This document shows, piece after piece, positions 16,005 to 45,564 of a DNA stretch of 58,341 nt; positions within the stretch are counted from its first letter, which is position 1, and each line of letters starts with the position of its first letter. Position numbers and translations under genes: made by a program. The DNA lies in assembly GCA_026396255.1 (NCBI GenBank), contig JAPLXD010000006.1, positions 1-58,341 on the forward strand. The letters run 5' to 3'. This DNA is from Candidatus Moraniibacteriota bacterium (lineage in GTDB: Bacteria; Patescibacteriota; Minisyncoccia; Moranbacterales; UBA11712). Under the pieces are notes generated by a model that was not told where the DNA came from, ran no database searches, and was given only the letters and a program-made list of their open reading frames with translations.

Positions 16005-16030
16005 TTATGTAATTTGCAATGTTATTTTGC

Positions 16031-16229: not shown

Positions 16230-16463
16230 TTAAACAATCTGTTTGAGACAAGTGATAATTCCTATTGCCAATAATATGGCGGAAAGAACGAAAAAACATT
16301 TATACTCTGATTCGGTCAGTGCAGTTTCATCTGTAGTTGGCAACTTTTTAGCTCTTTCGCGCTCCCTGTTGATAAAAATAAAAGTAGCTACGCTAAAGAG
16401 AATAAAAATTATGCCCTCTATGATAAGTTTTTGAGCCTGGGATAATTCCATATTTTCCTCCAA
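16230..16463 (-). CDS. small hypothetical membrane protein (2 TM)
   Basis: GGAGG RBS. A terminator hairpin AGCCGGTCCGGCT with T-run lies downstream on the minus strand. Confidence 0.55.
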   Translation of the reverse strand: MEENMELSQAQKLIIEGIIFILFSVATFIFINRERERAKKLPTTDETALTESEYKCFFVLSAILLAIGIITCLKQIV

Positions 16464-16495
16464 AATACAGGATATTCAGGACATAATATTGTACT

Positions 16496-17656: not shown

Positions 17657-17676
17657 GTAATAAAAGCTCTGATGAG

Positions 17677-18342: not shown

Positions 18343-18352
18343 ATTAAATCTT

Positions 18353-19168: not shown

Positions 19169-19214
19169 TTTTTGCGAAAATGACAAGTATAAGAGTTCAA
19201 GTTATAATAGAAAT

Positions 19215-20264: not shown

Positions 20265-20338
20265 TATCGAATATTCTGAAAAAATAAATTTCTGCGAAAA
20301 TTCATATTTTTCAGAATTTAATATTTTTTGTTAAACAT

Positions 20339-20896: not shown

Positions 20897-20901
20897 TTTT
20901 T

Positions 20902-22068: not shown

Positions 22069-22208
22069 GAGAGTGTCGGAATTTATTTCGAAGTGGTCGG
22101 CGAAGATTATTTTTTTCGCGCTGGTAAAAGGCATCGGGTTATTGGATGCTTGGGCGGCTTTCAAAAGATGGCTCTCAGATAGCCTGAAAGCTAAAGGGGG
22201 AAATACAA

Positions 22209-22469
22209 ATGGCGGACATAATTCCTGAAATTGGTCAGTGGCTTACCGTGAATACAGATATGCCGTGGTGTAGTACGCCTGGAAAAGTGGTTTCCGTCGA
22301 TTTGGACAAAAAAACATTTCAGGCGGAATTTGTATGTGACCCGGACCAAGGTGAATATCCAAGCTTTGAAGCGGCCACAACGCATGAATTTCATGCCATA
22401 AATGAGATTATCCGTAACCCGAAAATGATTGAGGATTTCGAAATTTGGCATCGAGAGTCTAACGGATAA
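22209..22469 (+). CDS. hypothetical 86-aa protein
   Basis: AAAGGGGGA RBS and a strong terminator at 22492-22519. No recognisable motif. Confidence 0.5.
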   Translation: MADIIPEIGQWLTVNTDMPWCSTPGKVVSVDLDKKTFQAEFVCDPDQGEYPSFEAATTHEFHAINEIIRNPKMIEDFEIWHRESNG

Positions 22470-22491
22470 TTTTGAAGGAAATTTTTAAGAC

Positions 22492-22519
22492 GGGCGATGT
22501 TGCGACATCGCCCTTTTTT
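22492..22519 (+). terminator. intrinsic terminator
   Basis: GGGCGATGT-TGCG-ACATCGCCC followed by TTTTTT. Confidence 0.75.
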
Positions 22520-22535
22520 CTTGGCAAAGCGAACT

Positions 22536-22564
22536 TTGACACAATATGTGTTTTCAAGTAAGAT
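22536..22564 (+). promoter_or_regulatory. sigma70-like promoter upstream of mreB-2
   Basis: TTGACA-N17-TAAGAT. Confidence 0.55.
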
Positions 22565-22687
22565 TAGGTACTAGGAACAGGAAAATAAATATAAAAATGG
22601 CTTCAAATTCACCTATCGTTGAAATGCTTTTTTAAGTTTGTTTAGCTCTTGTGTTTTGTGTTGCGTGTTACATGATTTCGTGAAATT

Positions 22688-23740
22688 ATGCTTTCAAGAA
22701 TTTTTGGAAGATTTTCAAAGGATATCGGGATTGACCTGGGGACGGCCAATACTCTTGTGTATGTCGCCGGACGAGGAATTGTGATCAATGAGCCATCGGT
22801 CGTGGCCGTCAACCAGAAAACCGGGCAAATTCTGGCCATCGGTGTGGAGGCCAAAAAAATGGTCGGCAAAACTCCCGCTCATATTGTCGCGACCCGGCCG
22901 CTCGTGGACGGAGTCATTTCGGACTTCGAAGTGACGGAGCAGATGCTTCGCTATTTCATTGAAAAAGTCCACAAAGACAGTTTTGCTCTGATGCCGCGGC
23001 CACAAGTGGTCATCGGAATTCCTTCAGGCGTGACGGAAGTGGAAAAGCGGGCGGTAGTGGACGCGGCGATGAGCGCCGGCGCCCGGCGGGCGTACCTTGT
23101 TGATGAGCCGATGGCGGCCGCGATCGGAGCGCGTCTCCCGATCCAGGAAGCGTCCGGGAATATGATCGTTGATATCGGCGGAGGGACGACGGAAATCGCC
23201 GTGATTTCTCTTGGCGGGGTGGTCGTTTGCCGGAGTTTGCGTATTGCCGGGGATGAAATGAATGAAGACATCATCCGCTATGCCCGCGATGAATTCAACC
23301 TTCTCCTGGGACTGAAGACCGCCGAAGACATCAAAATCGGGATCGGAAGCGCCTATGAGCTCGATGAAGTTTTGGAAATGCCGATGCGCGGACGCGATCT
23401 GGTGACGGGTCTGCCGAAAGAAGTGATCGTGAATGATTCACAGATCCGGGAAGCCATTTTCCGTTCCATAAAAATAATCGTCAACAACATCAAATCGACG
23501 GTCGAAGAAACTCCGCCGGAACTTCTTTCCGACATTATGCAAAGAGGCATCATTCTGGCGGGCGGGGGCAGCTTGATCCGGGGGCTCGAAAAATTGATCG
23601 CCGAGCAGACCGATATCCCCACGCGGGTGATGGACGATCCCTTGACGGCGGTGGCGCGGGGAACGGGAATCATCCTGGAACATCTCGATGAGCTGAAAAA
23701 CGTTTTGGCCGAAACGCAGTATGACAAAGTTTCTTTTTAA
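22688..23740 (+). CDS. mreB: rod-shape actin homologue MreB (paralogue 2, heads mreBCD-mrdA)
   Basis: IGIDLGTANTLVYV, DIGGGTTEIAVISLGG and GGGSLI. Confidence 0.92.
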   Translation: MLSRIFGRFSKDIGIDLGTANTLVYVAGRGIVINEPSVVAVNQKTGQILAIGVEAKKMVGKTPAHIVATRPLVDGVISDFEVTEQMLRYFIEKVHKDSFALMPRPQVVIGIPSGVTEVEKRAVVDAAMSAGARRAYLVDEPMAAAIGARLPIQEASGNMIVDIGGGTTEIAVISLGGVVVCRSLRIAGDEMNEDIIRYARDEFNLLLGLKTAEDIKIGIGSAYELDEVLEMPMRGRDLVTGLPKEVIVNDSQIREAIFRSIKIIVNNIKSTVEETPPELLSDIMQRGIILAGGGSLIRGLEKLIAEQTDIPTRVMDDPLTAVARGTGIILEHLDELKNVLAETQYDKVSF

Positions 23741-23764
23741 TTTAATCCGATTTATGTGAAGCTC

Positions 23765-23857
23765 GCGAAAAAATGATTTCTCGAGTAGGCTATCCGTCCC
23801 AACTAAAGATCAGGGACGGATACACGCAATACTCTCGAAATTCATTTTTTCACTCGC
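23765..23857. repeat. 93-bp nested inverted repeat between mreB-2 and mreC
   Basis: The outer arms are GCGAAAAAATGATTTCTCGAGTA and TACTCTCGAAATTCATTTTTTCAC. The inner arms are TATCCGTCCC and GGGACGGATA. Confidence 0.6.
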
Positions 23858-23867
23858 TAGAATAAAT

Positions 23868-23898
23868 TTCGTATATTCGTAAAGTTTCGTAGTTCGTA
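23868..23898 (-). repeat. four TACGAA(A/T) units, inverted counterpart of 10722-10753
   Basis: The plus strand reads TTCGTA t ATTCGTA aag TTTCGTA g TTCGTA, ending 5 nt before the mreC start. Confidence 0.75.
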
Positions 23899-23902
23899 GA
23901 GA

Positions 23903-24703
23903 ATGCCCATGTTTTCCCGCAAAAACCTAAAATATCTTTCAATAACAGGCGTATTGCTGATCGTCATCTTTGCCAGTCTTCGCTCTGACAACAATCCGTT
24001 GAAGGGAGCCATTTTGACTGTTTCCAGTCCGTTTCTCAAAACTTTCCGAATTTTTTCCGGGGGAGTGTCGGGTTTTTTTCAATTTATGGGATCGATCGGA
24101 GATCTCAAAAGTGAAAATGAAAAATTGGTCGGGGAAAACCAAAGCTTGCTTGCCCAAAACAACCGGCTCAAGGATGCGGAGAAAGAAAATCAAACTTTGC
24201 GGCAGCAGCTGGATCTTGCTCCCAGAAAAAATTTTGACCTTGAGGCCAGTTTTGTCATCGCCCAAGACCCGCAAGGGCTTGGCAATTATTTTCTCATTGA
24301 CAAAGGAGAAAATTCCGGGATCAAAACGGGAATGGCAGCCATAGTTTCAAACGGAATTTTGATCGGACAGGTCACTGAATCATATTCGAGCTCGGCGAAA
24401 GTCACACTTATCACCGATCCCTCGAGTGCCGTCAACGCCGAGGTGCAAAGCTCCGGGGCGAAGGGAATTGTGAATGGAGAATACGGCTTGGGACTCAAAA
24501 TGGGCATGATCTCGCAAACGGATGTTTTGAGCGAAGGCGACACGGTGATTACATCAGGTCTTGGCGGGAAAATTCCGCGAGGACTAACAGTCGGAAAGAT
24601 CGGCCAGGTCGGACAATCGCCCGACAAACTCTTTCAGGCGGCCTCGGTTGTTCCGGCCATCGATGTGTCGGACTTGAGAATGGTATTTATCATAAAGAAA
24701 TGA
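23903..24703 (+). CDS. mreC: rod shape-determining protein MreC
   Basis: N-terminal TM helix, a coiled coil (ENEKLVGENQSLLAQNNRLKDAEKENQTLRQQL), and a beta-rich C-domain. Confidence 0.85.
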   Translation: MPMFSRKNLKYLSITGVLLIVIFASLRSDNNPLKGAILTVSSPFLKTFRIFSGGVSGFFQFMGSIGDLKSENEKLVGENQSLLAQNNRLKDAEKENQTLRQQLDLAPRKNFDLEASFVIAQDPQGLGNYFLIDKGENSGIKTGMAAIVSNGILIGQVTESYSSSAKVTLITDPSSAVNAEVQSSGAKGIVNGEYGLGLKMGMISQTDVLSEGDTVITSGLGGKIPRGLTVGKIGQVGQSPDKLFQAASVVPAIDVSDLRMVFIIKK

Positions 24704-25245
24704 AAAATTTCGCGTTGTTCATCCTTTGCGTGGCTACGGTTTTTCTGCAGTTCTCCGTTGAAGGTGTCTTTTTTTCCGCGCGGAGGATTCCGGATCTGGC
24801 ATTGGCGCTCGTGATCACTCTGGTGTTGGCCATGGGTTTCAAGGAATCTCTCAAATGGATATTGCTCACGGGAATGTTGATCGATGCCGGGTCAAGCACT
24901 GTTTTCGGAACGGCGGCTCTGGCGTATTTTCTGGTCGGATGGATGGTTGCCGGTCTCATCGATGTGGCGGACATAAGGTCGCGGAAAACATTTTTTCTGG
25001 CAGTTTTTGCGGCGGCTGTCCTGGTTTCGGAGATTGCGAAGGATATATTTATTTTTGCCATTTTGAAAATAAAGGCAAATTTTCTCCACGAACCGTTCGG
25101 CGTTTCTTTGAACATTTTCAGCGCGGACTATTTTTTCAAGATCCTATATTCAATCATTGCGGCTTATGCCATTTATTATATTTTTAGAAGAATCAGCCGA
25201 GCATTGTTTTTGGAACCGGTGAGATTGGCGAAAAGGAACTACTGA
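24700..25245 (+). CDS. mreD: rod shape-determining protein MreD
   Basis: About 5 TM helices. It overlaps mreC by 4 nt and sits between mreC and mrdA. Confidence 0.65.
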   Translation: MKNFALFILCVATVFLQFSVEGVFFSARRIPDLALALVITLVLAMGFKESLKWILLTGMLIDAGSSTVFGTAALAYFLVGWMVAGLIDVADIRSRKTFFLAVFAAAVLVSEIAKDIFIFAILKIKANFLHEPFGVSLNIFSADYFFKILYSIIAAYAIYYIFRRISRALFLEPVRLAKRNY

Positions 25246-25256
25246 TAAATATTGCC

Positions 25257-27134
25257 ATGTTTGAAAATTATTTCAATAAAAAAAGACAGTTGCGAGGAGC
25301 CGAAATCGACGAGATCACGGAAAATTCTTCCGATCTTGATGAAACACGGGTTGTTGGGAGTGCTGTTTCGGGAAACAGGCTCAAAATTTTTCGCGTGATC
25401 GTTTTTGTGATATTTCTGCTCCTTGGGGCAAGGGTTTTTTATCTTCAAATAGCGAGAGGTGGATATTATAGCGAACTGTCGCGGGAAAACCGGGTGCGCT
25501 CGATTGTCATCAAGGCGCCGCGGGGGATCATATATGACCGGAACGGAGAAAAGCTTGTAAACAACGTCCCGAGTTTCGACCTGATCGCCATTCCGGTGGA
25601 TATTCCGAAAGATCAAAATTTGAAAAAACAGGAGATGGCGGATATTGCCGAGATGTTTGGCATGAACAGTCAAAACATTGAAGTGATCGTTGGCTCGCAA
25701 AATGAGAGCTCGATGAATCCCGTTTTGATCAAAGAAAACGTGAGCCAGGATGAATCTCTCATTTTTACCGAAAAATACCTGAATCTCAAGGGCTTCGCTC
25801 TCGATCAGACGGCGGTGCGCCAGTATGAAGACGGCCCGTACTTTTCTTCCTTCATCGGATACAGCGGAAAAATATCAAAGGACGATCTGGCCGCCCATCC
25901 GGACTATCTGATGACGGACTATATCGGAAAAACCGGCGTGGAATATAGCTATGAAAAAAATCTGCGGGGAGTGAACGGAAAACAGGAAGTCGAGGTGGAT
26001 TCGGCCGGGAATATCCAAAAGGACTTCGGCGTCACGGAGCCGGTCCCGGGTAGCGATTTGGTTTTGGGGATTGACGCTGATCTTCAGAAAAAGCTCGAAG
26101 ACTCCCTGCAGGCAAAGCTCAACGAGACGGGGACGAAAACAGCGGCAGCGGTCGCGATCGATCCGAGAAACGGCGAAATTTTGGCGATGGTCAATCTTCC
26201 CAGTTATGACAACAATCTTTTCGCCAAAGGAATTTCAGCGGACGACTATCAAAAATTGATGTCCGATCCGGACAAGCCGATGTTCAACCGTTCGATTTCC
26301 GGGGAGTATCCGCCCGGTTCAACTTTCAAACCGCTTGTGGCGGCGGCGGCGCTGCAAGAGGGGACGATCACGCCGAGCACGACGCTTGACTGTCCGGCAG
26401 CAATCAATATCGGGAGCTACAGTTTTCCGGACTGGAAAACGCACGGCCTCACGGATGTCCGCAAAGCGATCGCAGAAAGCGTGGACATCTTTTTTTATGC
26501 GGTGGGCGGAGGCTGGGGAGATATCACAGGACTTGGTATAGACAAAATTCAGCAATACGCCGACAAGTTCGGTCTCGGCCGCAAGCTCGGGATTGATATT
26601 CCGGGAGAAGTTTCGGGGCTCATTCCGACCGAGCAGTGGAAACAGGACAAACTCGGCGAGAGGTGGTACCTGGGAGACGATTATCACTGCGCTATCGGGC
26701 AAGGGTTTGTGACGGTCACGCCGCTTCAGCTCGCGAACTATATTGCGGCGATTGCCAACGGCGGAACAGTTTTCCAGCCGCACCTTGTCGACTCGATCAA
26801 AAAAATTGACGGATCGGTGGAAAAATTGAACAAAAATTTTGTTTCTGCAGCCAACTTGCAAGTCGTGCGGGAAGGAATGCGCCAGACGGTGCTTTCCGGA
26901 ACAGCGCAGCCTTTGAAAGACTTGCCGGTCGAAGTGGCGGGAAAAACAGGAACAGCCCAATTCGGCAGCGGCAACGAGCGCGAGCATGGTTGGTTCGTCT
27001 CTTTCGCGCCCTACAACAACCCGACGATCGCCATGGCGGTTCTGGTGGAAGGCGGGGGGGAAGGCTTCTCGACGGCCGAACCGGTGACCCACGATGTCTA
27101 TCAGTGGTATTTCGGAGATAGAAATAAGCAGTAG
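25257..27134 (+). CDS. mrdA: penicillin-binding protein 2 (elongation transpeptidase)
   Basis: PBP dimerisation domain, GSTFKP (SxxK), and GKTGTAQ (KTG). Confidence 0.9.
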   Translation: MFENYFNKKRQLRGAEIDEITENSSDLDETRVVGSAVSGNRLKIFRVIVFVIFLLLGARVFYLQIARGGYYSELSRENRVRSIVIKAPRGIIYDRNGEKLVNNVPSFDLIAIPVDIPKDQNLKKQEMADIAEMFGMNSQNIEVIVGSQNESSMNPVLIKENVSQDESLIFTEKYLNLKGFALDQTAVRQYEDGPYFSSFIGYSGKISKDDLAAHPDYLMTDYIGKTGVEYSYEKNLRGVNGKQEVEVDSAGNIQKDFGVTEPVPGSDLVLGIDADLQKKLEDSLQAKLNETGTKTAAAVAIDPRNGEILAMVNLPSYDNNLFAKGISADDYQKLMSDPDKPMFNRSISGEYPPGSTFKPLVAAAALQEGTITPSTTLDCPAAINIGSYSFPDWKTHGLTDVRKAIAESVDIFFYAVGGGWGDITGLGIDKIQQYADKFGLGRKLGIDIPGEVSGLIPTEQWKQDKLGERWYLGDDYHCAIGQGFVTVTPLQLANYIAAIANGGTVFQPHLVDSIKKIDGSVEKLNKNFVSAANLQVVREGMRQTVLSGTAQPLKDLPVEVAGKTGTAQFGSGNEREHGWFVSFAPYNNPTIAMAVLVEGGGEGFSTAEPVTHDVYQWYFGDRNKQ

Positions 27135-33374: not shown

Positions 33375-34256
33375 ATGGGAATATTTTCCAAAAAAAAGAA
33401 AAACAAAACTATCCAAAAATCCTGGCAAAGAAAAGAGACGAAGGCGTATCCCGGAGCGCCGAAAAAAGAAAAACCGAAAAAGGGCGGGTTTTTTTCTCGC
33501 TTCCTTTTTTGGTTGCTTTTGGTCGGTTTTCTCGGGATTTGCGTTTTTTTGCTTTTTTTCTCGACTTTTTTGGATATCAGCAAAATAACTATTCAGGGGA
33601 ATCAGGATATTTCGAGCGTGGAGATTTCGAAAGTGGTGGAAAAATCACTCGAAGGGAATTATTTGAAGTATTTGCCGAAAAAAAATTTCTTTCTGGCGAG
33701 CGAGGCGAATATTGGCAATGCGGTGAAAAACAATTTTAATCGTCTGGAGGTTGCGTCGATCGGGAAAAAATTTCCTGATACGATTGTCGCGAAAGTGGTT
33801 GAGCGGAAAGCGGAATTGGCCTGGTGCAGCGCGGGTGTGTGCTATTTCGTCGACGGCAGCGGTTTGGTATATGGAGGAGCGGCGGGTAGCGAAGATGATT
33901 TGCGGGTCGGCAATTTCTTGGTGGTGGTCGACGACAGCGCCATCCCGGTGGAGATCGGCAAAACAAAAATAAGCCCGGATTTTATCGGATATGTTGAAGG
34001 AGCGAATGCAATGATGCGGGACGATTTGAAGATTGAACCTGTGGCGAGCTACCATACTCCCGGGATAGCTTCGCAGGAGGTCAGCGTGATGACCAGTGAG
34101 GGCTGGATCCTCAAAATCAGTTCGGAATATTCAATCGATGAAGCAAAAAATATCATCCAGACCCTTTTCGAGAAAGATTTGAACGGAGAAACAAGAAAAA
34201 ATATGGACTATTTGGACTTGAGAGTGAAGGGGAAAGTTTATTATAAAACGAAATAG
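33375..34256 (+). CDS. FtsQ/DivIB-like cell division protein
   Basis: Basic N-terminus, one TM helix, POTRA-like ITIQGNQDISSVEI, and a beta-rich C-domain. Confidence 0.55.
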   Translation: MGIFSKKKKNKTIQKSWQRKETKAYPGAPKKEKPKKGGFFSRFLFWLLLVGFLGICVFLLFFSTFLDISKITIQGNQDISSVEISKVVEKSLEGNYLKYLPKKNFFLASEANIGNAVKNNFNRLEVASIGKKFPDTIVAKVVERKAELAWCSAGVCYFVDGSGLVYGGAAGSEDDLRVGNFLVVVDDSAIPVEIGKTKISPDFIGYVEGANAMMRDDLKIEPVASYHTPGIASQEVSVMTSEGWILKISSEYSIDEAKNIIQTLFEKDLNGETRKNMDYLDLRVKGKVYYKTK

Positions 34257-36055: not shown

Positions 36056-36173
36056 AGATTTTTGTTTATTTTTTATTTATCTCAAGAGTGCTTACGCCCA
36101 CATTATACAACAACCAAGAAAAGTTATCCACAAGATACTATTGCACTAGTTTTTGTGGTATAATTTCAGTACA

Positions 36174-36253
36174 CCCCCACACCAATTCTAATTATGAATC
36201 AGATTTTTTCAATTATTCAACGAAGAAGATGATAACTGGAATTGGTGTGGGGG
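36174..36253. repeat. CCCCCACACCAATTC inverted-repeat element (copy 4, perfect 15-bp arms)
   Basis: CCCCCACACCAATTC-N50-GAATTGGTGTGGGGG. An extended -10-like TGGTATAAT at 36156-36164 lies just upstream. Confidence 0.8.
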
Positions 36254-36332
36254 TAAAAGACAAAAAGAAAATCCGGAAAAAGCTGAAGCGTATTCAAAGC
36301 GCCGGTTTTGTTTGAGTTAAAAAAAATTAAAA

Positions 36333-39300
36333 ATGGAAAAAGGAAGAGGAAATTTTATAGAAGCAATGGGAGAAGAAGGCTATATCAGCAGAGATGCCGG
36401 AAAGAAAAAACCGCATGCGCGGAAAAGGAAATCGACGGACGCTAAATATAGGGAAGCTAGAGAATCTTTTGAAGAAAGCGCGGTTGAGGAAGCACCACCT
36501 CCAGCCAGAAATTTGCATGTAGTTGCAAGAATACCGGATAAAAAAGCGGCATATCGCGTCGAGCCAACACGAGAAGCGGCAGTACGAGAACTCTTACTGC
36601 CTGAAAGCGGTGAAGAAGGATTGGAAGGGCTTGAGGAGAAAATCAACAGCGAACTCACGGAGCTGGAGCAGGGATTTGCCAAATCCTGCATAGATGAATA
36701 TCCGAAAGAACTTGAAAAAGCCATAAGCAAAATTGAAAGCAAGGGTTCGACGGTTGTTGAAAAGCAAATTTCAGCAATTCGGACAAGTTATATAAGTGAT
36801 GCAAAAAGATGGGGTCTTGGCAGACAGCTTGCGCCGGAAAAGGCGGAGCTTATCGGAAAATATCTTGAACTGAAATTGCCGGTCGGAATTCCGGAGGAAA
36901 AATTGAAGGAAACACCGAAAAATACAGTGGAGACAAGTGGCGAGTCTTTAAAAGATTTAAATAAAAAAGATAAACATATGGAAATACCCGTAAAGGAAAT
37001 AACAAATATAAATATAAGAGAACAGCTCAAGCAAGATAAGGAAGAGCTAGGGGCGGCTGGGATGATGTCAAATTCCGCCGATCCGAAAAATAATGTAAAT
37101 ATTTCTTCAGGTGGGAAAAAGGTGGAGGAGACTGTAAGTGATCAAGCAGTGATAAATCAACGCAAAATAAATAGAGCGAGAGAATTTGCGCCGAAAGGGA
37201 TGAGAAACATTGCCAAAGTGAGCACGGACGGGCTCGCGCCTGAATTTTCTGACGTTCCCCTGGCGCCGGGAGAAAAGGCTAATTTAGAAAGGGTTGAACA
37301 GGCGCCGGTTGCTCCAGAGTCGAAATCGGATGCGGAGCCTAAGAAGGGCGAAAAAACTCTCGAAGAATTAAAAGCGGATTTGGACGCGAAAAGAGCAGTT
37401 TATGCGAAGGTAGATCTAGACGCGTTCAGAAAATGGTCAAGGTTAAAAAATCTGCTTGGTGCGAGCATAAAAGAGGTTTCAGACGAAGATTACTCTAAAG
37501 CATTTCATGATTATAACGGAGCGTGGCAAGACTACCTGGAAGCTAAGCGTGGAGATGTATTGAAAAAAGGCAATAAAGAAGATGCACGGGAATTTTTGCG
37601 GGAATTTGAGGGAGCAGAAGAAGCGGCCAAATTTTTGAATTTAAAATACGATTTGAAAAAGGAGCAGTCAGGCTATCCGGCAAAAATTCTCTATGGATTC
37701 GAAAAAATGGCCAATGGCTGGAAAGAAATGAATTGGAAGAAAAAGATAGCAATATCAGCAGCTATATTCGGAGTCGGAGCATTGGCGGGCGTAACCGGCG
37801 GTGCGAGTTTTGGCCTAATTGGAGCGACTGCGTTCACTCTCCGGACAGTTCAGAGGACATTGGGGGCGGGTGCGATGTATATTGGAGCGAAAAGATTTCA
37901 AGACCAACGTTTCCTTGGAAAAATGAATAAAGAATTGGAACATAAGCTTGATACATTTCTTGGTTCTGATGAATGGCTCGAGAGAATAAAGAATCTTGAA
38001 TCTGGATTTACAATGAAATCGACGGAAAATCTTTTTAAAAGCAAGGAACGGATTGAGGAGATGGACAGCAAACACAAGCGAAGAGCGCTTGCTCTCGCTG
38101 GATTGGTTGGCGTCGGGGGAACAGCTTTCGACATGTATCGGCATGGAGTTTTTAATGGGCTAGGTGGAGCTATTAAAGAAAAAATGGTTAATTCCTCTAT
38201 TTTAGCATCTTCAATATCCGCGGAAGGTATGGGAGGCGGAGCTGCGGCGATGCAGGCGCATGAAGTTCTTACTGCCCACACTCCCGAAATAAAAAGCGGC
38301 GGGTCATTGCTTAATTGGGCCGAAAGTACTAATGCGGCAGGAGCTGATGCTAATGTTTCCGATCAATTTCACAAACCTTCTAGTTTGGTAGCAACTCCGC
38401 TTGACCAGTCGATGAGACCGGGTGTCCATCCAGGTGCGTCGGCTTCGGATGTGCATTCCGGACAGCCGCATCCGACGGAATATCCAGGCAAAGCGCCGGT
38501 AAATATGAATGATCAGGGCGGGAATTTTTCCGAGCATGTGCCAGCGGACAATGCGAGCCCTCGGATACTGGGATCTCATGAGGTTGTGCGGAACGGTGGA
38601 ATTGAAAGATCGGCACAGGATATAATAAAAGCCAACCCAAAAGCCTTTGGGCTTGATCCCGAAAATCCGCGATTTCACAGTCAGGTTGGGGCAAAGGCGC
38701 ATGAACTGGCAGAAGACCTTCGTGGCAGATTGGGGCTGAAAAAGGGTGTATTTGATAATTTTGCAAGTCATCGGGTTCAGCCGGGGGATCATATAAAAAT
38801 ATTCGAAGATTCATCCACGGGAAAGCCCAAGCTGTCATATGAAGGGAAAGCCTTCGGCAATAGAATTCCAGTGGGCGATCTTCATCATGGCAGCGCGGCC
38901 GAAGATTTAGCGACCAGCCATCCGGCGAAGGTCATGGGAGGACACGCCGGTGCATCCCAAGAAATTGCTCCGAGCAAGGGAGGTATGCCCGTTGAAGATG
39001 TGAAACCAAAAATGGGCGTTAATCCCGAGGATATAAAACCAAGAACGGGGGCGGTGCCTGAAAATACCTTAAGTAAGCCACATTTTACGCCCGAAAATGC
39101 TGTGGAGCCAAGGGCGGGAGCCGGTGAGGGCGCAGCCAACGCAGAAAAGTTGGCCAATATCAATCATCGCGTGTATCTGGCAAATCGTCCTCTTTTGGGA
39201 AATATATTCCACAAATTTGGAATAAGCGAATACTACAATATCTATGATCAGCCGATGAGTAAATGGGACGACCTGATCGGAACCGGTCCCAATGTCGCCC

Positions 39301-39527
39301 AAGATGTTTCACAGGCCGACGTAGTCAATGTTTCGAATGAGAGCTGGAAGAAATTGAATGATTTGCGCAGTATTTTGAAATATTACAATACAAGCGGCCA
39401 TGAAAACATCGGTGAATGTTTGAGGCGGGCTTTGGCGGATTCGAGGATTGCCCCAATTGGGCATGGAGAATCAATTGGAGCCAAGGTTCAACAGGCTATC
39501 AACGAGATATTAAATAATAAAAAATAA
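36333..39527 (+). CDS. 1064-aa hypothetical membrane protein
   Basis: Long uninterrupted ORF. It has a charged coiled-coil-like N-half, central hydrophobic helices (AISAAIFGVGALAGVTGGASFGLIGATAF; ALALAGLVGVGGTAF), and a P/G/E-rich C-half. No motif recognised. Confidence 0.7.
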   Translation: MEKGRGNFIEAMGEEGYISRDAGKKKPHARKRKSTDAKYREARESFEESAVEEAPPPARNLHVVARIPDKKAAYRVEPTREAAVRELLLPESGEEGLEGLEEKINSELTELEQGFAKSCIDEYPKELEKAISKIESKGSTVVEKQISAIRTSYISDAKRWGLGRQLAPEKAELIGKYLELKLPVGIPEEKLKETPKNTVETSGESLKDLNKKDKHMEIPVKEITNINIREQLKQDKEELGAAGMMSNSADPKNNVNISSGGKKVEETVSDQAVINQRKINRAREFAPKGMRNIAKVSTDGLAPEFSDVPLAPGEKANLERVEQAPVAPESKSDAEPKKGEKTLEELKADLDAKRAVYAKVDLDAFRKWSRLKNLLGASIKEVSDEDYSKAFHDYNGAWQDYLEAKRGDVLKKGNKEDAREFLREFEGAEEAAKFLNLKYDLKKEQSGYPAKILYGFEKMANGWKEMNWKKKIAISAAIFGVGALAGVTGGASFGLIGATAFTLRTVQRTLGAGAMYIGAKRFQDQRFLGKMNKELEHKLDTFLGSDEWLERIKNLESGFTMKSTENLFKSKERIEEMDSKHKRRALALAGLVGVGGTAFDMYRHGVFNGLGGAIKEKMVNSSILASSISAEGMGGGAAAMQAHEVLTAHTPEIKSGGSLLNWAESTNAAGADANVSDQFHKPSSLVATPLDQSMRPGVHPGASASDVHSGQPHPTEYPGKAPVNMNDQGGNFSEHVPADNASPRILGSHEVVRNGGIERSAQDIIKANPKAFGLDPENPRFHSQVGAKAHELAEDLRGRLGLKKGVFDNFASHRVQPGDHIKIFEDSSTGKPKLSYEGKAFGNRIPVGDLHHGSAAEDLATSHPAKVMGGHAGASQEIAPSKGGMPVEDVKPKMGVNPEDIKPRTGAVPENTLSKPHFTPENAVEPRAGAGEGAANAEKLANINHRVYLANRPLLGNIFHKFGISEYYNIYDQPMSKWDDLIGTGPNVAQDVSQADVVNVSNESWKKLNDLRSILKYYNTSGHENIGECLRRALADSRIAPIGHGESIGAKVQQAINEILNNKK

Positions 39528-39536
39528 ATAAAAATT

Positions 39537-39893
39537 ATGCCAAACGACACAATCCTCCAGCAGTCGATCATTGAAGAGTTGGGACTGCAGAGTCTTCCCA
39601 AAGAAAAGCAGGAAGAAATTCTTGTCAAAATGACGGAAGTGCTTCTCAAAAAAATATATCTTGAGACTTTCGAGAAGCTTGCCGATCCGGACCGCGAGGA
39701 ACTGGCCAAGATGCTCGACACCGAAGAGGCGGAACCGGAAAAAGTGGAAGCGTATCTGCGCACGAAAATTGAAGACTATGACGGATTCGTCAAAAAAATC
39801 GTTGAAGATTTCACGGATGAGATGAAAAAAACAACGGGCGATTTGGGAAAGATCAAGGAAGAAGAATTGGCGAAAGCGGGCGGGGAAGTCTAA
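39537..39893 (+). CDS. hypothetical acidic helical protein (118 aa)
   Basis: Tightly spaced after the large ORF (9-nt gap). No motif recognised. Confidence 0.55.
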   Translation: MPNDTILQQSIIEELGLQSLPKEKQEEILVKMTEVLLKKIYLETFEKLADPDREELAKMLDTEEAEPEKVEAYLRTKIEDYDGFVKKIVEDFTDEMKKTTGDLGKIKEEELAKAGGEV

Positions 39894-39906
39894 TTTTCTG
39901 AAAATT

Positions 39907-40527
39907 ATGAAGTCAGTACACATCTGTGTTTTTGGAGCCAGCATAACTTGGGGCGCGTACGACGCTGAAAAAGGCGGCTGGGTGGAGCGGCTGAAAATTC
40001 ATTTTTTCAACCAAGAGGATGAAAATTTTGCCAGTGTCTATAATCTCGCGGTTTCAGGCGCGACGGCAGAATATTTACTGAAAAGATTCGATGTCGAATG
40101 CGAAGCGCGAAGGCCGGATATTATTGTTTTTTCGATTGGAAATAATGATTCTCAGTTTTTAAAATCAGAGGATAGGAATCTAACTCCAATCGAAAAATTT
40201 CAGAAAAATATTGAAAAGCTGTACGAAAAATCCCTGAAATTCGCTGAAAAAATAGTTTTCATAGGATTAACCGGAGTTGATGAGGAGAAAACGAAGCCTG
40301 TCTATTGGAATGAAGATAGTTGGTATACAAATGAAGAGATAACGAAATACGATTCAGCTATTGAAAAATTTTGTCAGGAGAAAAATTTGAAATATGTCAG
40401 CTTGAAAGGAGTTTTGAAACCCGGCGATTGGGAAGATGGTCTGCATCCCAATGCAAAAGGGCACGAAAAAATATTCGAGAAAATAAAACCGGAAGTTTTG
40501 AGTATTTTTCAGGAAATTAAAGATTAA
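39907..40527 (+). CDS. SGNH/GDSL-type hydrolase
   Basis: Block I VFGASITWG, block III SIGNND, block V DGLHPN. Confidence 0.75.
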   Translation: MKSVHICVFGASITWGAYDAEKGGWVERLKIHFFNQEDENFASVYNLAVSGATAEYLLKRFDVECEARRPDIIVFSIGNNDSQFLKSEDRNLTPIEKFQKNIEKLYEKSLKFAEKIVFIGLTGVDEEKTKPVYWNEDSWYTNEEITKYDSAIEKFCQEKNLKYVSLKGVLKPGDWEDGLHPNAKGHEKIFEKIKPEVLSIFQEIKD

Positions 40528-40538
40528 ATCAAGAAAAA

Positions 40539-41009
40539 ATGGCGCAAAGCAATTATCAAGAGCCGATCGAGCAAAAGGATCTGGATCTGGCGAAAAAACT
40601 GAGAGAAGCGAATATTGACGCTGGGGAAAAAGAAACTATTCCGACCCCGGAAGTATCAAAAGAAGTCCAAGTTGAAACAATTGCGGAATCACCCGAAGAA
40701 AAAGTTTCCGAAAAAATTGAGACAGCCAGGCAGACCATTGGAACGCAGCAAGCGGCTCCGGCTGCAAATATTGCGAGCGATGCTCAGTCCGTCTCCGGAA
40801 TTGAAGAATTTGAGAAAAAGGTGGAAAAATTGGTCGAAATTGCCGGGAAATATGGACCGGAACACGCGATCCAGGTGGCGCAGCATATGGACAAAGGAAA
40901 AGATTCGGCGGCGGCCGACAACTATACTCTTGATGAGATTCATGATCGTTTGATGGAAGATGAACTCCGAAGTCAACTGATGCAGAAGGGACTTTTGACG
41001 GAATTATAA
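40539..41009 (+). CDS. hypothetical acidic protein (156 aa)
   Basis: ORF in the operon-like series. No motif recognised. Confidence 0.5.
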   Translation: MAQSNYQEPIEQKDLDLAKKLREANIDAGEKETIPTPEVSKEVQVETIAESPEEKVSEKIETARQTIGTQQAAPAANIASDAQSVSGIEEFEKKVEKLVEIAGKYGPEHAIQVAQHMDKGKDSAAADNYTLDEIHDRLMEDELRSQLMQKGLLTEL

Positions 41010-41032
41010 ATTTTCCAAAAACAAAAATAAAA

Positions 41033-43564
41033 ATGGATGCTTATAGTTTAAATTTAATATTATACCCTCTGGCCGGGCTGGCCGCGATTGTCTGTTTTGC
41101 CTCGGGCGCTCTTTTGGTATTCAAAAGTTTCATGGGTTTTCGCGGTCTGGTCACGCGGTCGCTCAATATGGATCTCGACGTGGTGAAAGTGAGCCGGCCG
41201 ATGAAGCGGGAAGCGCAAGGCGAACAGCAGCAACAGCCCAAATCGGAAAAAGAATTGATCTCGGTGATGGAGCATCTTTTCGCGAGTCTCGGGAACATCA
41301 AAGAAAAATCAAACATTTGGCATCGAATTATATATGGAGACGCGGTCGTAGCGCTCGAAATGGCCAATCCCGCCGACAATGACGAAATTTCCTTCTACGT
41401 CGGGGCGCCGAAAAAATTCATCAACATTGTCGAGCGGCAGATTCACAGCTTTTATCCCAAGGCCTCGATTGAACGGGTGAAAGACTACAATATTTTTTCT
41501 CCCGGCAGTTTCACAGCGGCTTCAAGCCTCACTCTCAAGGATAAGCATCATTTTCCGATCCGGACATATCAGACACTGGAAGCCGATCCTCTCAACAACA
41601 TCACGAACGTGCTTGGAAAGTTCGACGAGAAAAAGGAAGGGGCGGCCATCCAGCTTCTCATGAAACCGGCGCGGAGCGGCTGGCGGCAAAAAGGGAAGCA
41701 AGTCGCCCACAAAATGCAGCAGGGCCGGCAACTTTCGGATGTCAAAAGGGATACGATCGTGCGCCAGGTCGGCCGCGGACTGTTGAGCCTTTTTCATCAG
41801 AAAAAAGACAAACAGGAAGATATTTTGAAGCAAAACAAAGATGTCATCCAACTTACACCGGAAGAGCAGGAGGTGGTGAAAAAAATCGAAGGCAAAGCCG
41901 GAAAATCCGGTTTCAGCGTGAATATCCGTCTGGTGGCTTCGGCGCTCACTCAGGAGCGCTCGGAAGTGATTCTTTCCGAGCTCGAAAATGGCTTTATACA
42001 ATATGAAAATCCGGGACTAAACAGCTTCAAGGTTTTGCGCGAAGACAAGCGGCGTCCGAAGAATATCGCTTTTGATTTCATCTTCCGCAACTTTCGGAGC
42101 GACCAAAGTTTTGTTCTGTCTTCAGAGGAAATTGCCAGCGTTTTTCATTTTCCGCTGTTCTCGACCGAAACGCCTAAGATCGCCTGGCTCAAGGCCCGCA
42201 CGGCCGCCCCGCCTTCAAACATTTCGAAAGATGGCATCACGCTCGGCTTCAACGACTATCGCGGAGTGGAAACGGTGATTCGGCACGCAGAGGACGATCG
42301 ACGGCGCCACTTCTATGTCGTCGGACAAACCGGAACCGGAAAATCAACGATGATGGAAGAAATGGTGAAACAGGACATCAAAAACGGAAAAGGCGTGTGC
42401 GTTATCGATCCCCACGGAGAGTTTGTTGATCATGTGCTTGAATGTGTTCCGAAAGAACGGGCGGAGGACGTGATCTATTTCGATCCGGCGGACATGGAGC
42501 GGCCGTATGGGCTCAATATGCTTGAATTTGACCAAAACAAGCCGGAGCAAAAAACTTTTGTCATCAATGAAATGATCAATATCTTTGACAAGCTCTATGA
42601 TCTGCGCCAGACGGGCGGCCCGATGTTTGAACAATATATGCGCAACGCGGCCCTGCTCGTGATGGAACACCCGGATTCCGGTTCGACCTTGATGGAGATT
42701 CCGCGAGTCCTGGCCGATGAAGAATTTCGGCATTTGAAACTGTCGCATTGCACCAATCCGGTCGTCAAAAATTTCTGGGAAAAAGAAGCGGAAAAGGCGG
42801 GCGGGGAAGCGGCTCTCGCCAATATGGTCCCGTATATCACTTCGAAACTCACCCAGTTTATTTCGAACGATATGATGCGGCCGATCATCGCTCAGGAGAA
42901 ATCGACAATCAACTTTCGCCAGGCGATGGACAACCAGCAAATTATTCTAGTGAACCTTTCAAAGGGAAAGATTGGCGAAATCAACGCCAATCTCCTGGGA
43001 ATGATCATCGTTGGAAAAATATTAATCTCGGCACTTTCGCGGGTGGATATTTCAGAAAGCGAGCGCAAAGATTTTTATCTCTATATCGATGAATTTCAAA
43101 ACTTCACGACCGATTCGATCGCCCAGATTCTTTCGGAAGCACGAAAATATCGGCTGGCTCTAGTCATTGCTCATCAATTCATCGCCCAACTCAAAGAAGA
43201 AATTTCCAAGGCGGTTTTTGGAAACGTGGGATCGATTTGCTCATTTCGGGTGGGGGCGGAAGACGCGGAATTTCTGCAAAAGCAGTTTGAGCCGGTATTC
43301 GATGCGAATGATCTCATGAACGTGGACAATCACAACTGTTTCATGAAACTTTTGATCGCGAGCCAGGTCGCTTCGCCCTTCAATATGAAAACCTATCCGC
43401 CGACGGCCGGCTCGAAAGAGATCGCGGAAGCCATCAAGGAGCTTTCCAAATTGAAGTACGGGCGCAATCGTGATATAGTGAATGAAGAGATCTTGAAAAA
43501 ATCAAGTTTTGTTTCCGCTCCCGCTTCGGCTGACGCTTTTGATATGGGAGAAAAACCGATGTAA
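41033..43564 (+). CDS. membrane-anchored FtsK/HerA-superfamily ATPase, TraD/VirD4 (coupling-protein)-like
   Basis: N-terminal TM helix, Walker A VVGQTGTGKST, IDPHGEF, Walker B LYIDEFQNF, and ARKYRLALVIAHQFIAQL (TraG-D_C-like). Confidence 0.75.
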   Translation: MDAYSLNLILYPLAGLAAIVCFASGALLVFKSFMGFRGLVTRSLNMDLDVVKVSRPMKREAQGEQQQQPKSEKELISVMEHLFASLGNIKEKSNIWHRIIYGDAVVALEMANPADNDEISFYVGAPKKFINIVERQIHSFYPKASIERVKDYNIFSPGSFTAASSLTLKDKHHFPIRTYQTLEADPLNNITNVLGKFDEKKEGAAIQLLMKPARSGWRQKGKQVAHKMQQGRQLSDVKRDTIVRQVGRGLLSLFHQKKDKQEDILKQNKDVIQLTPEEQEVVKKIEGKAGKSGFSVNIRLVASALTQERSEVILSELENGFIQYENPGLNSFKVLREDKRRPKNIAFDFIFRNFRSDQSFVLSSEEIASVFHFPLFSTETPKIAWLKARTAAPPSNISKDGITLGFNDYRGVETVIRHAEDDRRRHFYVVGQTGTGKSTMMEEMVKQDIKNGKGVCVIDPHGEFVDHVLECVPKERAEDVIYFDPADMERPYGLNMLEFDQNKPEQKTFVINEMINIFDKLYDLRQTGGPMFEQYMRNAALLVMEHPDSGSTLMEIPRVLADEEFRHLKLSHCTNPVVKNFWEKEAEKAGGEAALANMVPYITSKLTQFISNDMMRPIIAQEKSTINFRQAMDNQQIILVNLSKGKIGEINANLLGMIIVGKILISALSRVDISESERKDFYLYIDEFQNFTTDSIAQILSEARKYRLALVIAHQFIAQLKEEISKAVFGNVGSICSFRVGAEDAEFLQKQFEPVFDANDLMNVDNHNCFMKLLIASQVASPFNMKTYPPTAGSKEIAEAIKELSKLKYGRNRDIVNEEILKKSSFVSAPASADAFDMGEKPM

Positions 43565-43587: not shown

Positions 43588-43761
43588 ATGGACCAGCACG
43601 ATATGCAGACGGAAAAAACAGATGAAGAAGAAACGCTCGATCCGCATTGCGCAACTTGCAATATGCCATTGAGAAAAGCGGAGGATTTCGGGACGGATTC
43701 CGAGGGCGAGAAGAGCGAAAAATATTGCTGCCATTGTATGCAGGGCGGAAATATGCTTTGA
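43588..43761 (+). CDS. 57-aa zinc-ribbon protein
   Basis: CATCNMPL..DFGTDSEG..KYCCHC matches the 'putative zinc ribbon' pattern CxxCgMPL...G.....YCxxC. Below the ORF-track size cut-off. Confidence 0.55.
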   Translation: MDQHDMQTEKTDEEETLDPHCATCNMPLRKAEDFGTDSEGEKSEKYCCHCMQGGNML

Positions 43762-44042: not shown

Positions 44043-44357
44043 TTAAGCTGCTGATTTTCTTTCTCCCCGCATTTTTGCGAGTCCGCGGCGGATAAGGGGA
44101 TCCACCTCATTGATCAAGTCGTCAAGATTTTCGAAATCGAGTTGTCTAACCAACTTGTCATTGAAATCAATTTCATTGTCCGTAATTTTGCGAAGAACCT
44201 CTGCAATTTCCGAATTGGGAATACCGTCTTCGAGATTCGGGCTGCTAGCGAGAACATTCAAAACTCGAGCGGCTATCGTATTCGCAATAGCAGAACGGTT
44301 TTCGGCCCGAATTTTTGCCATATTATCCGTTATTCTTTTCTTTTCCAATCGGCTCAT
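44043..44357 (-). CDS. hypothetical 104-aa protein downstream of DUF763
   Basis: Its start lies 1 nt after the DUF763 stop. A hairpin with T-run follows on the minus strand. Confidence 0.55.
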   Translation of the reverse strand: MSRLEKKRITDNMAKIRAENRSAIANTIAARVLNVLASSPNLEDGIPNSEIAEVLRKITDNEIDFNDKLVRQLDFENLDDLINEVDPLIRRGLAKMRGERKSAA

Positions 44358-44358
44358 A

Positions 44359-45564
44359 TTATTTCAGTCTCCCAATTATCTTATTTTTCTCACTATATCC
44401 AATTTTCATCTTGGACGCAAGCGTTTGCATAGTGGCAATTGTTTGGTCATATGTCGGGCGATCGACGGGGTAGGGGATGAAATCTTTTCCGCCGTGGGCG
44501 AAGGAATAACGGGCCGGATCTTCATAGGAAGCTTTCGCGCCGTAAATAACTTCCGCTGTCAGCGCCAAAGCTCTGATGGTCTTTGGCCCGACGCCTTTCA
44601 AAGATAAAAGCTGTTCATAATTTTTCGGCTTGACTACATTCACTTCGTATAATATTTTTTCCAAATACTTGCTTTTGGTGAAATCCTCCGTGATGACGGG
44701 CAACACCTTGAAATCGCGGTCATGCAGGTGTATTTTGGTGAGTTCTTGATTCTCGTTTCCAACCGAGATCACTTCGCTTTGAGCTGTTGAGTGGTCGCGC
44801 AGAATGGAGATCGGATCTCCATCGGGGAGATCCGATCTCCGAGGAGTCGCGTATTTGCTCAATAATGCTAGATCTTTCATGAGAGTATTATAGCTTCCTT
44901 GAACGAGCTCTGTGCTGATTTTTTGGGTGTTTTCGCTTTCTCTGGCGGTCATATTGAGCCCGGTGTGCTGGCCGTCCGAAATAATCCCGCTGTGCGGTTC
45001 AATCACTAGGTTCTTTACTTCGTCCGAGAACCAGTGATAGCGTCGCGCCGTCACCTCTTTTTCGTTCATGCCTTGTTGAACGACGGCCCACGTGCCGTTG
45101 CGTGAGAAAAAGAAGCAGTGATGATAAATCTGGAACCCGTCCTGGACGAGGGAAGAATCGACTTTCGCCGCCATCCGGGAATTGTATTCGAGCGAATTTA
45201 TTTTTTCCTGCGAGAGTTCGGCTCGCGCGCCGAAGAGTGAAATTTGCTCCGGAGTTTTGAGCGACGCTTTGCCTTTCCCGCCACAAATATATATTCCCAA
45301 ATCTCTTTCCTCGCCGCGGATAGCCTCTTTCAAAGCCGCGGTTAAAATAGTGATGAGTCCCGACGCGTTCCAGTCAAAAGCGAGCACCGTTCCGAGCGCC
45401 TGAAACCAGACCGGATCGGCGATCCGTTTCACAAACTCATCCGGCCCATATTCGGCAATGATGACCCGTGACATCTCCCGTCCCAGTTTCACCATCCGTT
45501 CGAACAGCCATTTGGGGCACTTGCCATAGTCAAGAGTGAAGGTGGCAATTCCGCGCTTGAACAT
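44359..45564 (-). CDS. DUF763-family protein with helix-hairpin-helix-like C-terminal motif
   Basis: N-terminus GKCPKWLFERMVKLG...DPVWFQALGTVLAFDWNASG is typical of DUF763 as I recall it. LLSLKGVGPKTIRALAL is HhH-like. Confidence 0.7.
   Translation of the reverse strand: MFKRGIATFTLDYGKCPKWLFERMVKLGREMSRVIIAEYGPDEFVKRIADPVWFQALGTVLAFDWNASGLITILTAALKEAIRGEERDLGIYICGGKGKASLKTPEQISLFGARAELSQEKINSLEYNSRMAAKVDSSLVQDGFQIYHHCFFFSRNGTWAVVQQGMNEKEVTARRYHWFSDEVKNLVIEPHSGIISDGQHTGLNMTARESENTQKISTELVQGSYNTLMKDLALLSKYATPRRSDLPDGDPISILRDHSTAQSEVISVGNENQELTKIHLHDRDFKVLPVITEDFTKSKYLEKILYEVNVVKPKNYEQLLSLKGVGPKTIRALALTAEVIYGAKASYEDPARYSFAHGGKDFIPYPVDRPTYDQTIATMQTLASKMKIGYSEKNKIIGRLK
44816..44850. repeat. twin-palindrome element in frame in the DUF763 gene
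   Basis: GGAGATCGGATCTCC-atcgg-GGAGATCCGATCTCC. Translated on the minus strand as RRSDLPDGDPIS. Confidence 0.9.

Follow-up and report, generated by a model that had tools for sequence, protein, structure and literature searches.

A membrane-anchored ATPase with a VirB4-like N-terminal domain, a coupling-protein-like motor and linked small genes in a Candidatus Moraniibacteriota bacterium

What does a coupling-protein-like ATPase do in a bacterial genome segment that carries no other secretion gene? The question is raised by contig JAPLXD010000006.1 (assembly GCA_026396255.1) of a Candidatus Moraniibacteriota bacterium, an ultra-small freshwater member of the Patescibacteria, in which a stretch of 58,341 nt (hereafter the window) was analysed. 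A block of genes in this stretch pairs a 1064-aa membrane protein with an 843-aa ATPase, and the initial annotation had proposed that the block could be a minimal, uncharacterised apparatus for DNA or protein translocation or for surface remodelling. It had described five same-strand genes separated by short gaps, and their coordinates proved exact, with intergenic gaps of 9, 13, 11 and 23 nt:

36333-39527, + strand: hypervariable membrane protein (large protein), 1064 aa (open reading frame, ORF)
39537-39893, + strand: DUF5663-type acidic helical protein, 118 aa (ORF, borderline Pfam score)
39907-40527, + strand: GDSL/SGNH hydrolase of cytoplasmic type, 206 aa (Lipase_GDSL_2, 3.5e-21)
40539-41009, + strand: acidic ATPase partner, 156 aa (ORF, alignment)
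41033-43564, + strand: membrane-anchored ATPase, 843 aa (family matches, hydropathy, AlphaFold2 models)

Domain composition of the ATPase

The ATPase is divided into an N-terminal anchor, a domain preceding the motor and the motor itself:

residues ~7-37: transmembrane (TM) helix (hydropathy; hydrophobic helix at 2-37)
residues ~44-400, nt 41162-42232: DUF8128 / VirB4 N-terminal-domain-like domain (Pfam and fold)
residues ~411-770: motor resembling type IV coupling proteins (T4CPs), a P-loop domain with an all-alpha insertion
nt 42323-42349, + strand: Walker A (GQTGTGKST), motif
nt 43079-43105, + strand: Walker B (LYIDEFQNF), motif

The motifs previously read as hallmarks of T4CPs and of the FtsK/HerA superfamily are all four present, namely GQTGTGKST (residues 431-439), IDPHGEF (458-464), DEFQNF (686-691) and ARKYRLALVIAHQFIAQL (703-720), and their positions are invariant in an alignment of 49 homologues; Walker A, Walker B and other motor residues are likewise invariant across 36 sequences that share 28-40% identity. 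Three Pfam families matched the ATPase above their cut-offs, DUF87 (PF01935; 1.9e-12), TrwB_AAD_bind (PF10412; 4.6e-12, spanning residues 422-736) and T4SS-DNA_transf (PF02534; 1.4e-5), with TraG-D_C also listed, and NCBIfam gave local P-loop matches only, of the TraD, VirD4, CedD and HerA types. A sequence profile run against the PDB retrieved TrwB (1.5e-8), DotL (5.8e-6) and HerA (1e-3), and neither VirB4 nor FtsK was among its matches. With TrwB and DotL as its best PDB relatives, the ATPase is TraD/VirD4-like in sequence, as had been claimed. It does not group with the chromosome-segregation proteins FtsK and SpoIIIE in sequence searches, since the FtsK_SpoIIIE family (PF01580) matched only locally and below threshold (E = 0.055; 13.3 bits against a cut-off of 24) and FtsK was missing from the PDB matches. 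Moreover, the Pfam and NCBIfam searches detected no FtsK-type gamma (winged-helix) domain, and the protein has a single TM helix in place of a multi-span N-terminal domain. No HAS-barrel N-terminal domain and no NurA or nuclease neighbour was detected either, the matches to HerA models being confined to the P-loop. The VirB4-type model AAA_10 reached only 14.5 bits against a cut-off of 27.5 (E = 0.018), and the CagE model gave no match. A defence-system reading was tried and rejected, as PADLOC returned generic HerA/mad8 P-loop matches for the ATPase and none for its partners.

About 400 aa do precede the ATPase core, as the initial annotation stated, but they are not unassigned: precomputed matches for the window protein itself place DUF8128 (PF26449) there, and PF26449 lies N-terminal to PF10412 in almost all listed homologues. 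Structural models were used to compare this region with known folds. The full-length AlphaFold2 model (pLDDT 61) was searched against the PDB with Foldseek and matched TrwK/VirB4 first (1.4e-11), followed by HerA, Cagbeta, DotL and TrwB through the motor, with low TM-scores for the full-length matches. When residues 44-400 were modelled alone (pLDDT 74, pTM 0.74), the top 14 PDB matches were all TrwK/VirB4, down to 1.7e-6 (probability 1.00, TMq 0.38-0.43), and the next match followed at E = 0.013. The N-terminal domain is thus predicted to adopt the fold of the VirB4 N-terminal domain, the similarity being one of fold only. Within the motor, the model contains helices alone at approximately residues 504-633, between Walker A and Walker B, where its confidence is moderate. 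Since the N-terminal domain model matches VirB4 and the motor matches T4CPs, the ATPase joins a VirB4-like N-terminal domain to a T4CP-like motor in which an all-alpha domain is inserted, and it is distinct from FtsK, from HerA and from VirB4 itself.

The same layout recurs widely. Most of the best 150 representatives of the family have the single strong hydrophobic helix at the N-terminus, then about 380 aa and a Walker A motif near residue 400-450; by the positive-inside rule, everything beyond the helix would be cytoplasmic. The family comprises 22,533 clusters at 50% identity (E <= 1e-3), of which 5,890 are retained at E <= 1e-30, and a profile of distant members retrieves proteins of Doudna-, Kerfeld-, Jackson-, Falkow-, Buchanan-, Uhr- and Peregrinibacteria. 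Across the Moraniibacteriota order the ATPases are 57-92% identical with all motifs intact, a pattern of strong purifying selection. In public records, relatives are named 'type IV secretion system DNA-binding domain-containing protein'.

Genes linked to the ATPase in Moraniibacteriota

Conservation of the block was assessed in 84 related loci that were fetched for the purpose (85 including the window; single loci are given L-numbers), with iterative profile searches (jackhmmer) on all their ORFs. The closest ATPase relatives came from Moraniibacteriota ('Moranbacteria') genomes of freshwater and groundwater. The 156-aa protein was encoded directly upstream of the ATPase in 82 of the 85 loci, the DUF5663 gene, which directly follows that of the large protein, was found in 70, and the large protein itself in 60, always upstream of DUF5663, so that the order large protein, DUF5663, 156-aa protein, ATPase was constant. 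The association was also examined in reverse, in 80 metagenome loci picked by the 156-aa protein alone. Sixty-nine of these had enough downstream sequence, and in 67 the ATPase gene followed directly on the same strand; in the two exceptions extra genes were inserted after the 156-aa gene. Some genomes that keep the ATPase and its 156-aa partner lack the large protein and DUF5663, and in two loci this pair is duplicated beside the cassette (L066, 12647-14920; L161, 6466-8361), which suggests that the pair is a modular, duplicable unit. Public contigs that carry the Moraniibacteriota cassette, among them those of L005, L008, L010, L012 and L066, are often labelled 'uncultured Bdellovibrionales', 'Bathyarchaeia archaeon' or 'Micavibrio sp.', and these are probably mis-binned or mislabelled records.

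The remaining gene of the block behaved differently. The 206-aa hydrolase was correctly recognised as a member of the GDSL/SGNH family, but no SGNH gene was present in any of the 84 other loci, including relatives with ATPases 91-92% identical to that of the window. Because two of these relatives (L005 and L006) have only some 165-180 nt of non-coding DNA where the window carries the hydrolase gene, the latter is a recent strain- or lineage-specific insertion without a conserved role in the block. The proposal that five genes belong together is therefore upheld for four of them and has to be given up for the hydrolase, and the conserved cassette consists of four genes. The idea of surface remodelling is weakened as well, since the hydrolase, its sole enzymatic support, is missing from every other locus.

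Compared with the closest genome (L006), the window proteins fall along a wide range of divergence, from the ATPase (91% identity), DUF5663 (85%), the PMT-type glycosyltransferase encoded upstream of the block (82%) and the 156-aa protein (76%) to FtsQ (58%) and the large protein (26%), whose divergence far outpaces that of the neighbouring proteins. This large protein has a charged N-terminal half and a G/P/A-rich C-terminal half, in agreement with the earlier description; of the central TM helices described, one clear hydrophobic segment (residues 470-501) and one weak second stretch (at about 590-610) were found by hydropathy analysis. The PE(D/N) repeats reported in its C-terminal half amounted to four loosely similar short peptide motifs, and no tandem repeat was found in the DNA of the gene. 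A core of approximately residues 260-620, comprising the charged helical region and the hydrophobic segments, is shared across the order, and the N- and C-terminal regions vary between loci. No match was obtained in Pfam, NCBIfam, PADLOC, PHROG or the PDB, and a word-indexed search of 5.8 billion proteins retrieved six homologues. In one subclade (L003/L004, 4901-6352) a 483-aa protein with a weak DnaJ match precedes an 875-aa version of the large protein, and lineages seem to differ in how the gene is split or extended.

Both small proteins are acidic, as first noted, with net charges of -13 and -15. The 118-aa protein scored 23.5 bits against Pfam DUF5663 (PF18908), just under the cut-off of 23.7, and its orthologues in L003/L004 are assigned to DUF5663 in precomputed Pfam matches. 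In the alignment, the 156-aa protein starts with a LEPIEExDLDL-type motif, continues with an acidic low-complexity linker and ends in a conserved helical domain of about 70 aa with the pattern A..A..Y.LD..HD...G; it had zero relatives in Pfam or the PDB. Sequence searches of Pfam, NCBIfam, PHROG and the PDB gave nothing usable for either small protein, and no literature on DUF8128 or DUF5663 was found. Gaps of 9-23 nt and frequent overlaps of start and stop codons indicate that the block genes are probably co-transcribed in Moraniibacteriota. Sampled words of the block did not occur in metatranscriptome runs from the same lakes.

The remainder of the window is filled with housekeeping genes, among them UvrA/B/C, DnaX, HolB and several tRNA synthetases, a rod-shape set (RodA, 4761-5867; two MreB paralogues, MreC and PBP2 within 13798-27134), a MurA-like gene (12199-13695), ftsQ (33375-34256) and the PMT-type glycosyltransferase gene. 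In line with the initial annotation, no VirB4, VirB6, relaxase, pilin or integrase was found among the window ORFs scanned, which were all but a few, no att-like repeat was found, and GC content was even along the window in a composition scan. The possibility that the missing genes of a conjugative element lie just beyond the window could also be set aside, as dozens of related genomes show the same synteny of ftsQ, the PMT glycosyltransferase gene, DUF763 and uvrB, the first two standing upstream in about 36-40 of the 85 loci. Downstream, a DUF763 gene (3.4e-121) and a small gene upstream of it (44043-45564, - strand) adjoin uvrB in L003, L005, L007, L009 and L010. Three further features flank the block:

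36172-36255, strand not assigned: palindromic hairpin with an 18-bp stem and a loop of ~48 nt, in the 5' leader of the block
43588-43761, + strand: possible sixth gene, a 57-aa CxxC...CCHC zinc-ribbon-like ORF that starts 23 nt past the ATPase stop codon
43976-43993, + strand: first terminator-like hairpin with T-run downstream of the block (consensus scan)

Whether the 57-aa ORF is a sixth gene of the block is uncertain, its one counterpart being in the closest relative L005 (58% identity). The downstream hairpin may be the block terminator, although such matches were no more numerous than expected by chance. The upstream inverted repeat, first placed at 36174-36253 and described as a promoter-proximal element of the block, is real and strongly folding (-50.1 kcal/mol, z = -5.95, for the RNA of 36165-36335), and it directly follows an extended -10-like sequence, TGGTATAAT (36156-36164), read by eye as a putative promoter element. 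It is not specific to the block. Because the same arms (CACCCCCACACCAATTC) recur between rodA and the L25 gene (arms at 5883-5899 and 5938-5954), with loops of about 40-50 nt in both copies, the repeat is a dispersed palindromic element and no block-specific regulator. Four arm matches occur in the window (0.14 expected), and the element is missing from the related loci apart from one half-site match in L123. The hairpin has no Rfam match, tRNA-Gln being the sole match in a scan of the whole window. Elsewhere in the window, two GT4 glycosyltransferase genes are followed by a gene for a lycopene-cyclase-domain protein (17677-18342; 3.7e-12), unexpected given the minimal metabolism of the organism, and a CAP/SCP-domain protein (10806-12122) and a BNR/sortilin-repeat protein (19215-20264), both of which may be secreted or surface-located, are encoded amid housekeeping genes.

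Relatives on mobile elements and in other Patescibacteria

Full-length homologues of the ATPase occur on phages and plasmids. The phage family phrog_5156, which includes phage G gp156, CP-51 gp91 and ORF23 of the deep-sea phage D6E, matches the whole protein (7e-89). JL and Shanette are among the other Bacillus phages with a full-length homologue, and the model of the N-terminal domain aligned with the predicted structure of phage G gp156 at a TMq of 0.60. Further homologues are found on plasmids of Bacillus, Streptomyces, Clostridium, haloarchaea and Sulfolobus. A B. subtilis plasmid (NZ_CP032854) proved informative, as its 'DUF87' protein (WP_121549396) aligned with residues 96-821 of the window ATPase in BLASTP (22% identity, 2e-40), whereas the VirB4 of the same plasmid gave no alignment (0.089). 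On B. subtilis plasmids the homologue heads a Tcp-like conjugation operon and is followed by a Replic_Relax gene, by TcpC/TcpD/TcpE-like genes and by a true VirB4 (AAA_10, 3e-116). In phage CP-51, gp91 is flanked by a ParM-like partition gene and a Replic_Relax gene, and on C. botulinum plasmids a TrbC/VirB2 gene overlaps the start of the homologue. Replic_Relax corresponds to the MOB_C class of relaxases (PMC5357655), and VirD4-like and VirB4-like genes have been described on a Bacillaceae plasmid with such an arrangement (PMC3756968). The mobile-element relatives thus hold the coupling-protein position of a monoderm conjugation system. Since the plasmid and phage homologues adjoin a MOB_C relaxase-like gene, the family would ancestrally have served as the coupler between a processed substrate and a translocation channel.

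In Patescibacteria the setting is another one, the ATPase gene being surrounded by housekeeping genes in the window and also in over 170 loci. Uhr-, Buchanan- and Kerfeldbacteria and two further lineages have a different acidic protein, about 160 aa long, encoded ahead of the ATPase, often with its gene overlapping or abutting the start codon of the ATPase gene. Identity among these upstream proteins is 31-54%. Homology of this ABY1-type partner with the Moraniibacteriota 156-aa protein was considered and ruled out, as jackhmmer gave no match and hhalign a probability of 0.2%. The partners in the cassette are, by these comparisons, order-specific, other lineages pairing the ATPase with unrelated small proteins. 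Downstream of the ATPase, six loci (L087, L089, L090, L091, L093 and L094, including the Doudnabacteria locus) encode a conserved protein of about 200 aa, which is followed by dnaX in all of them except the Uhrbacteria locus (L089). This ~200-aa protein has the motif VEGVFDGQxMxGxDGKxYxVPxNYASKSKLVEGD, shows 45-67% identity between classes and is not assigned to any Pfam family. In the Peregrinibacteria locus, dnaE and aspS lie upstream of the ATPase and a peptidoglycan-binding protein gene downstream, and in the Kerfeldbacteria locus (L091) a gene for a weakly matching T4SS_pilin/VirB2-type pilin comes right after the ATPase.

Solitary coupling proteins are already known from this phylum. Quinonero-Coronel et al. 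(2025; PMC12102498) searched 3,035 Patescibacteria genomes and identified VirD4-type T4CP homologues, 5,713 in all, in 2,918; no more than 148 lay near virB4. VirB4 itself occurred in 2,417 of the 3,035 genomes, with type IV secretion system (T4SS) loci in most, and relaxases were rare, MOB_C being the commonest class and 39 relaxase genes lying close to a t4cp gene (PMC12102498). In Ca. Southlakia epibionticum the T4CP homologue was dispensable for epibiotic growth and the T4SS genes were essential, and the authors suggested exaptation of T4CPs (PMC12102498). The initial view of the block as not characterised can therefore be kept in part: the class of solitary T4CPs had been published, while the partner set and the identity of the N-terminal domain are new.

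Possible functions and comparison with known systems

The Patescibacteria ATPase is a chromosomal, conserved and solitary protein, and in Moraniibacteriota it has a near-obligate 156-aa partner and, frequently, a fast-evolving two-gene unit upstream. The likeliest reading, for which we consider the chances about even, is that it is a domesticated coupling or translocation motor with lineage-specific adaptors. Under this reading, the gene would have lost its conjugation context in Patescibacteria and come to sit among housekeeping genes in essentially all lineages. The ATPase would form a membrane-anchored, ATP-driven hexameric ring that passes a protein or DNA substrate on to a channel, most likely a chromosomal T4SS encoded elsewhere in the genome. 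Small partners regulate or adapt some T4CPs, as CagZ and IcmS/IcmW do (titles of PDB entries 8dol and 6sz9). By analogy with CagZ-Cagbeta and IcmS/IcmW-DotL, the 156-aa protein might bind the motor or its all-alpha domain as an adaptor or regulator, the large protein might be a client or membrane partner, and DUF5663 its small chaperone-like companion.

Several observations weigh against a domesticated coupling motor. Neither the 58-kb window nor most related loci yielded a T4SS channel gene, relaxase or pilin, so the use of a distant T4SS is an assumption. T4CP homologues occur in 96% of the surveyed genomes and VirB4 in 80% (PMC12102498), and since the Southlakia T4CP is dispensable where its T4SS is essential, the role of the former would be at least partly T4SS-independent; the survey homologues are not necessarily all of the DUF8128 type. 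The minimal apparatus likewise stays conjectural: no T4SS genes were found among the window ORFs scanned, but Patescibacteria mostly have VirB4-type T4SS loci elsewhere (PMC12102498). Classical T4CPs carry two N-terminal TM helices and no VirB4-like domain. For the partners no relatives of known function were detected, and since the proteins that take their place in other lineages are unrelated (hhalign 0.2%), the roles of adaptor and client are analogies. Finally, the full-length model has a pLDDT of 61, and the TM-scores to the VirB4 N-terminal domain are about 0.4.

The main rival, which we regard as unlikely, is that the ATPase is an autonomous FtsK-like DNA pump that handles chromosomes at the division site, in replication or in segregation, independently of secretion. 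A near-universal chromosomal family (PMC12102498; cluster counts above) would fit such a task, as would the neighbours of the gene, with ftsQ adjoining in about 36 of the 85 Moraniibacteriota loci, dnaX lying one to four genes downstream in Doudna-, Buchanan- and Kerfeldbacteria and two other lineages, dnaE adjoining in the Peregrinibacteria locus and ParM-type partition genes standing beside the phage and plasmid homologues; the dispensability of the Southlakia homologue beside an essential T4SS points the same way (PMC12102498). However, gene order next to replication genes may simply be inherited in reduced genomes, and the closest characterised contexts of the family are conjugation operons. 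The protein itself also speaks against a pump of this kind, given the subthreshold local match to FtsK_SpoIIIE (E = 0.055), the absence of FtsK from the PDB sequence and fold matches, and the lack of a multi-span N-terminal domain and of a gamma-domain match; the literature on the Saccharibacteria strain TM7x, moreover, reportedly deals with an ftsK gene. Ranking second, and in our view a little less probable again, is a stand-alone VirB4-like assembly or export ATPase that inserts or exports the hypervariable large protein, making the block a self-contained surface-display module that comes near the minimal apparatus of the initial annotation. The VirB4 N-terminal fold, with full-length VirB4 as best fold match, and the absence of other secretion genes nearby agree with this, and the large protein is hypervariable, as surface and host-contact proteins often are, is linked to the ATPase in 60 of 85 loci and forms duplicated units with DUF5663. 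Yet about 15-25 of the 85 loci keep the ATPase and the 156-aa partner without the large protein or DUF5663, neither of which is present in other classes; the motor shows no similarity to that of VirB4 (AAA_10, 0.018; plasmid VirB4, 0.089), the block encodes no channel-forming polytopic protein, and the hydrolase that would have served remodelling is a strain-specific insertion.

A decaying remnant of an integrated conjugative element or prophage is essentially excluded, and we hold it to be very improbable. Its attraction lies in the full-length homologues on Bacillus, Streptomyces, Clostridium and archaeal plasmids and in Bacillus phages, and in the phrog_5156 match over the whole protein (7e-89). 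The block nevertheless shows no integrase, relaxase, att-like repeat or shift in composition, its chromosomal position and neighbours are constant across the order, and the ATPase is strongly conserved (57-92%) with intact motifs; conserved synteny and even composition were the grounds for rejecting the remnant. A bolder extension, to which we give about the same low probability as to the DNA pump, is that the DUF8128 ATPase is a phylum-wide, stand-alone and T4SS-independent translocase, exapted from a coupling protein and served by interchangeable adaptors, that exports or inserts fast-evolving host-contact proteins or moves DNA. If true, a core machine of episymbiotic life would have gone unrecognised until now. 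Patescibacteria account for a sizeable part of bacterial diversity and depend on other cells, their exchange with hosts being largely unexplained, and a coupling-type ATPase that is kept near-universally yet detached from secretion genes is an obvious candidate for such exchange. The solitary T4CP class being known, what is new here is the VirB4-like identity of the N-terminal half, the conjugative relatives beside MOB_C relaxases that anchor the ancestry of the family, and the partner set, in which the linked 156-aa protein and the hypervariable membrane protein are obvious proteins to start with in interaction and localisation work.

Among known systems, FtsK/SpoIIIE and HerA belong to the same ASCE P-loop superfamily as the window ATPase and HerA is among its fold matches, but there is no family-level sequence match to them, and the ATPase has no HAS-barrel, NurA, multi-span or gamma domain. 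With VirB4, TrwK and TcpF it shares a two-domain layout of about 800 aa, and their N-terminal domain fold is the sole significant PDB match for DUF8128; in contrast, its motor is not matched by VirB4 models, and neither VirB3, VirB6 nor VirB8 neighbours were found in the window or the related loci. The classical T4CPs (TrwB of R388, VirD4, TraD, DotL and Cagbeta) have in common with it a P-loop motor with an all-alpha insertion and a membrane anchor, and they are its best sequence-level PDB matches. They differ in having two TM helices where the window ATPase has one and in lacking its extra domain of about 360 aa between anchor and motor, and identity is very low outside the Walker regions. 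The window ATPase also has no linked relaxase or T4SS: save for the weak pilin of L091, no linkage to a relaxase or to T4SS mating-pair-formation genes was found in the window ORFs scanned or in the Patescibacteria loci. The Bacillus plasmid and phage proteins have the same full-length architecture, but the partner genes differ, as these homologues adjoin Replic_Relax, ParM and, on plasmids, a Tcp-like operon with VirB4, none of which accompanies the window gene. The published survey of Patescibacteria includes neither the DUF8128/VirB4-like domain nor the partner genes nor the link to Bacillus plasmids and phages, and its hidden Markov model matches are not necessarily of this exact subfamily; its solitary T4CPs nonetheless resemble the window ATPase in being chromosomal, near-universal, usually far from virB4 and without a relaxase (PMC12102498).

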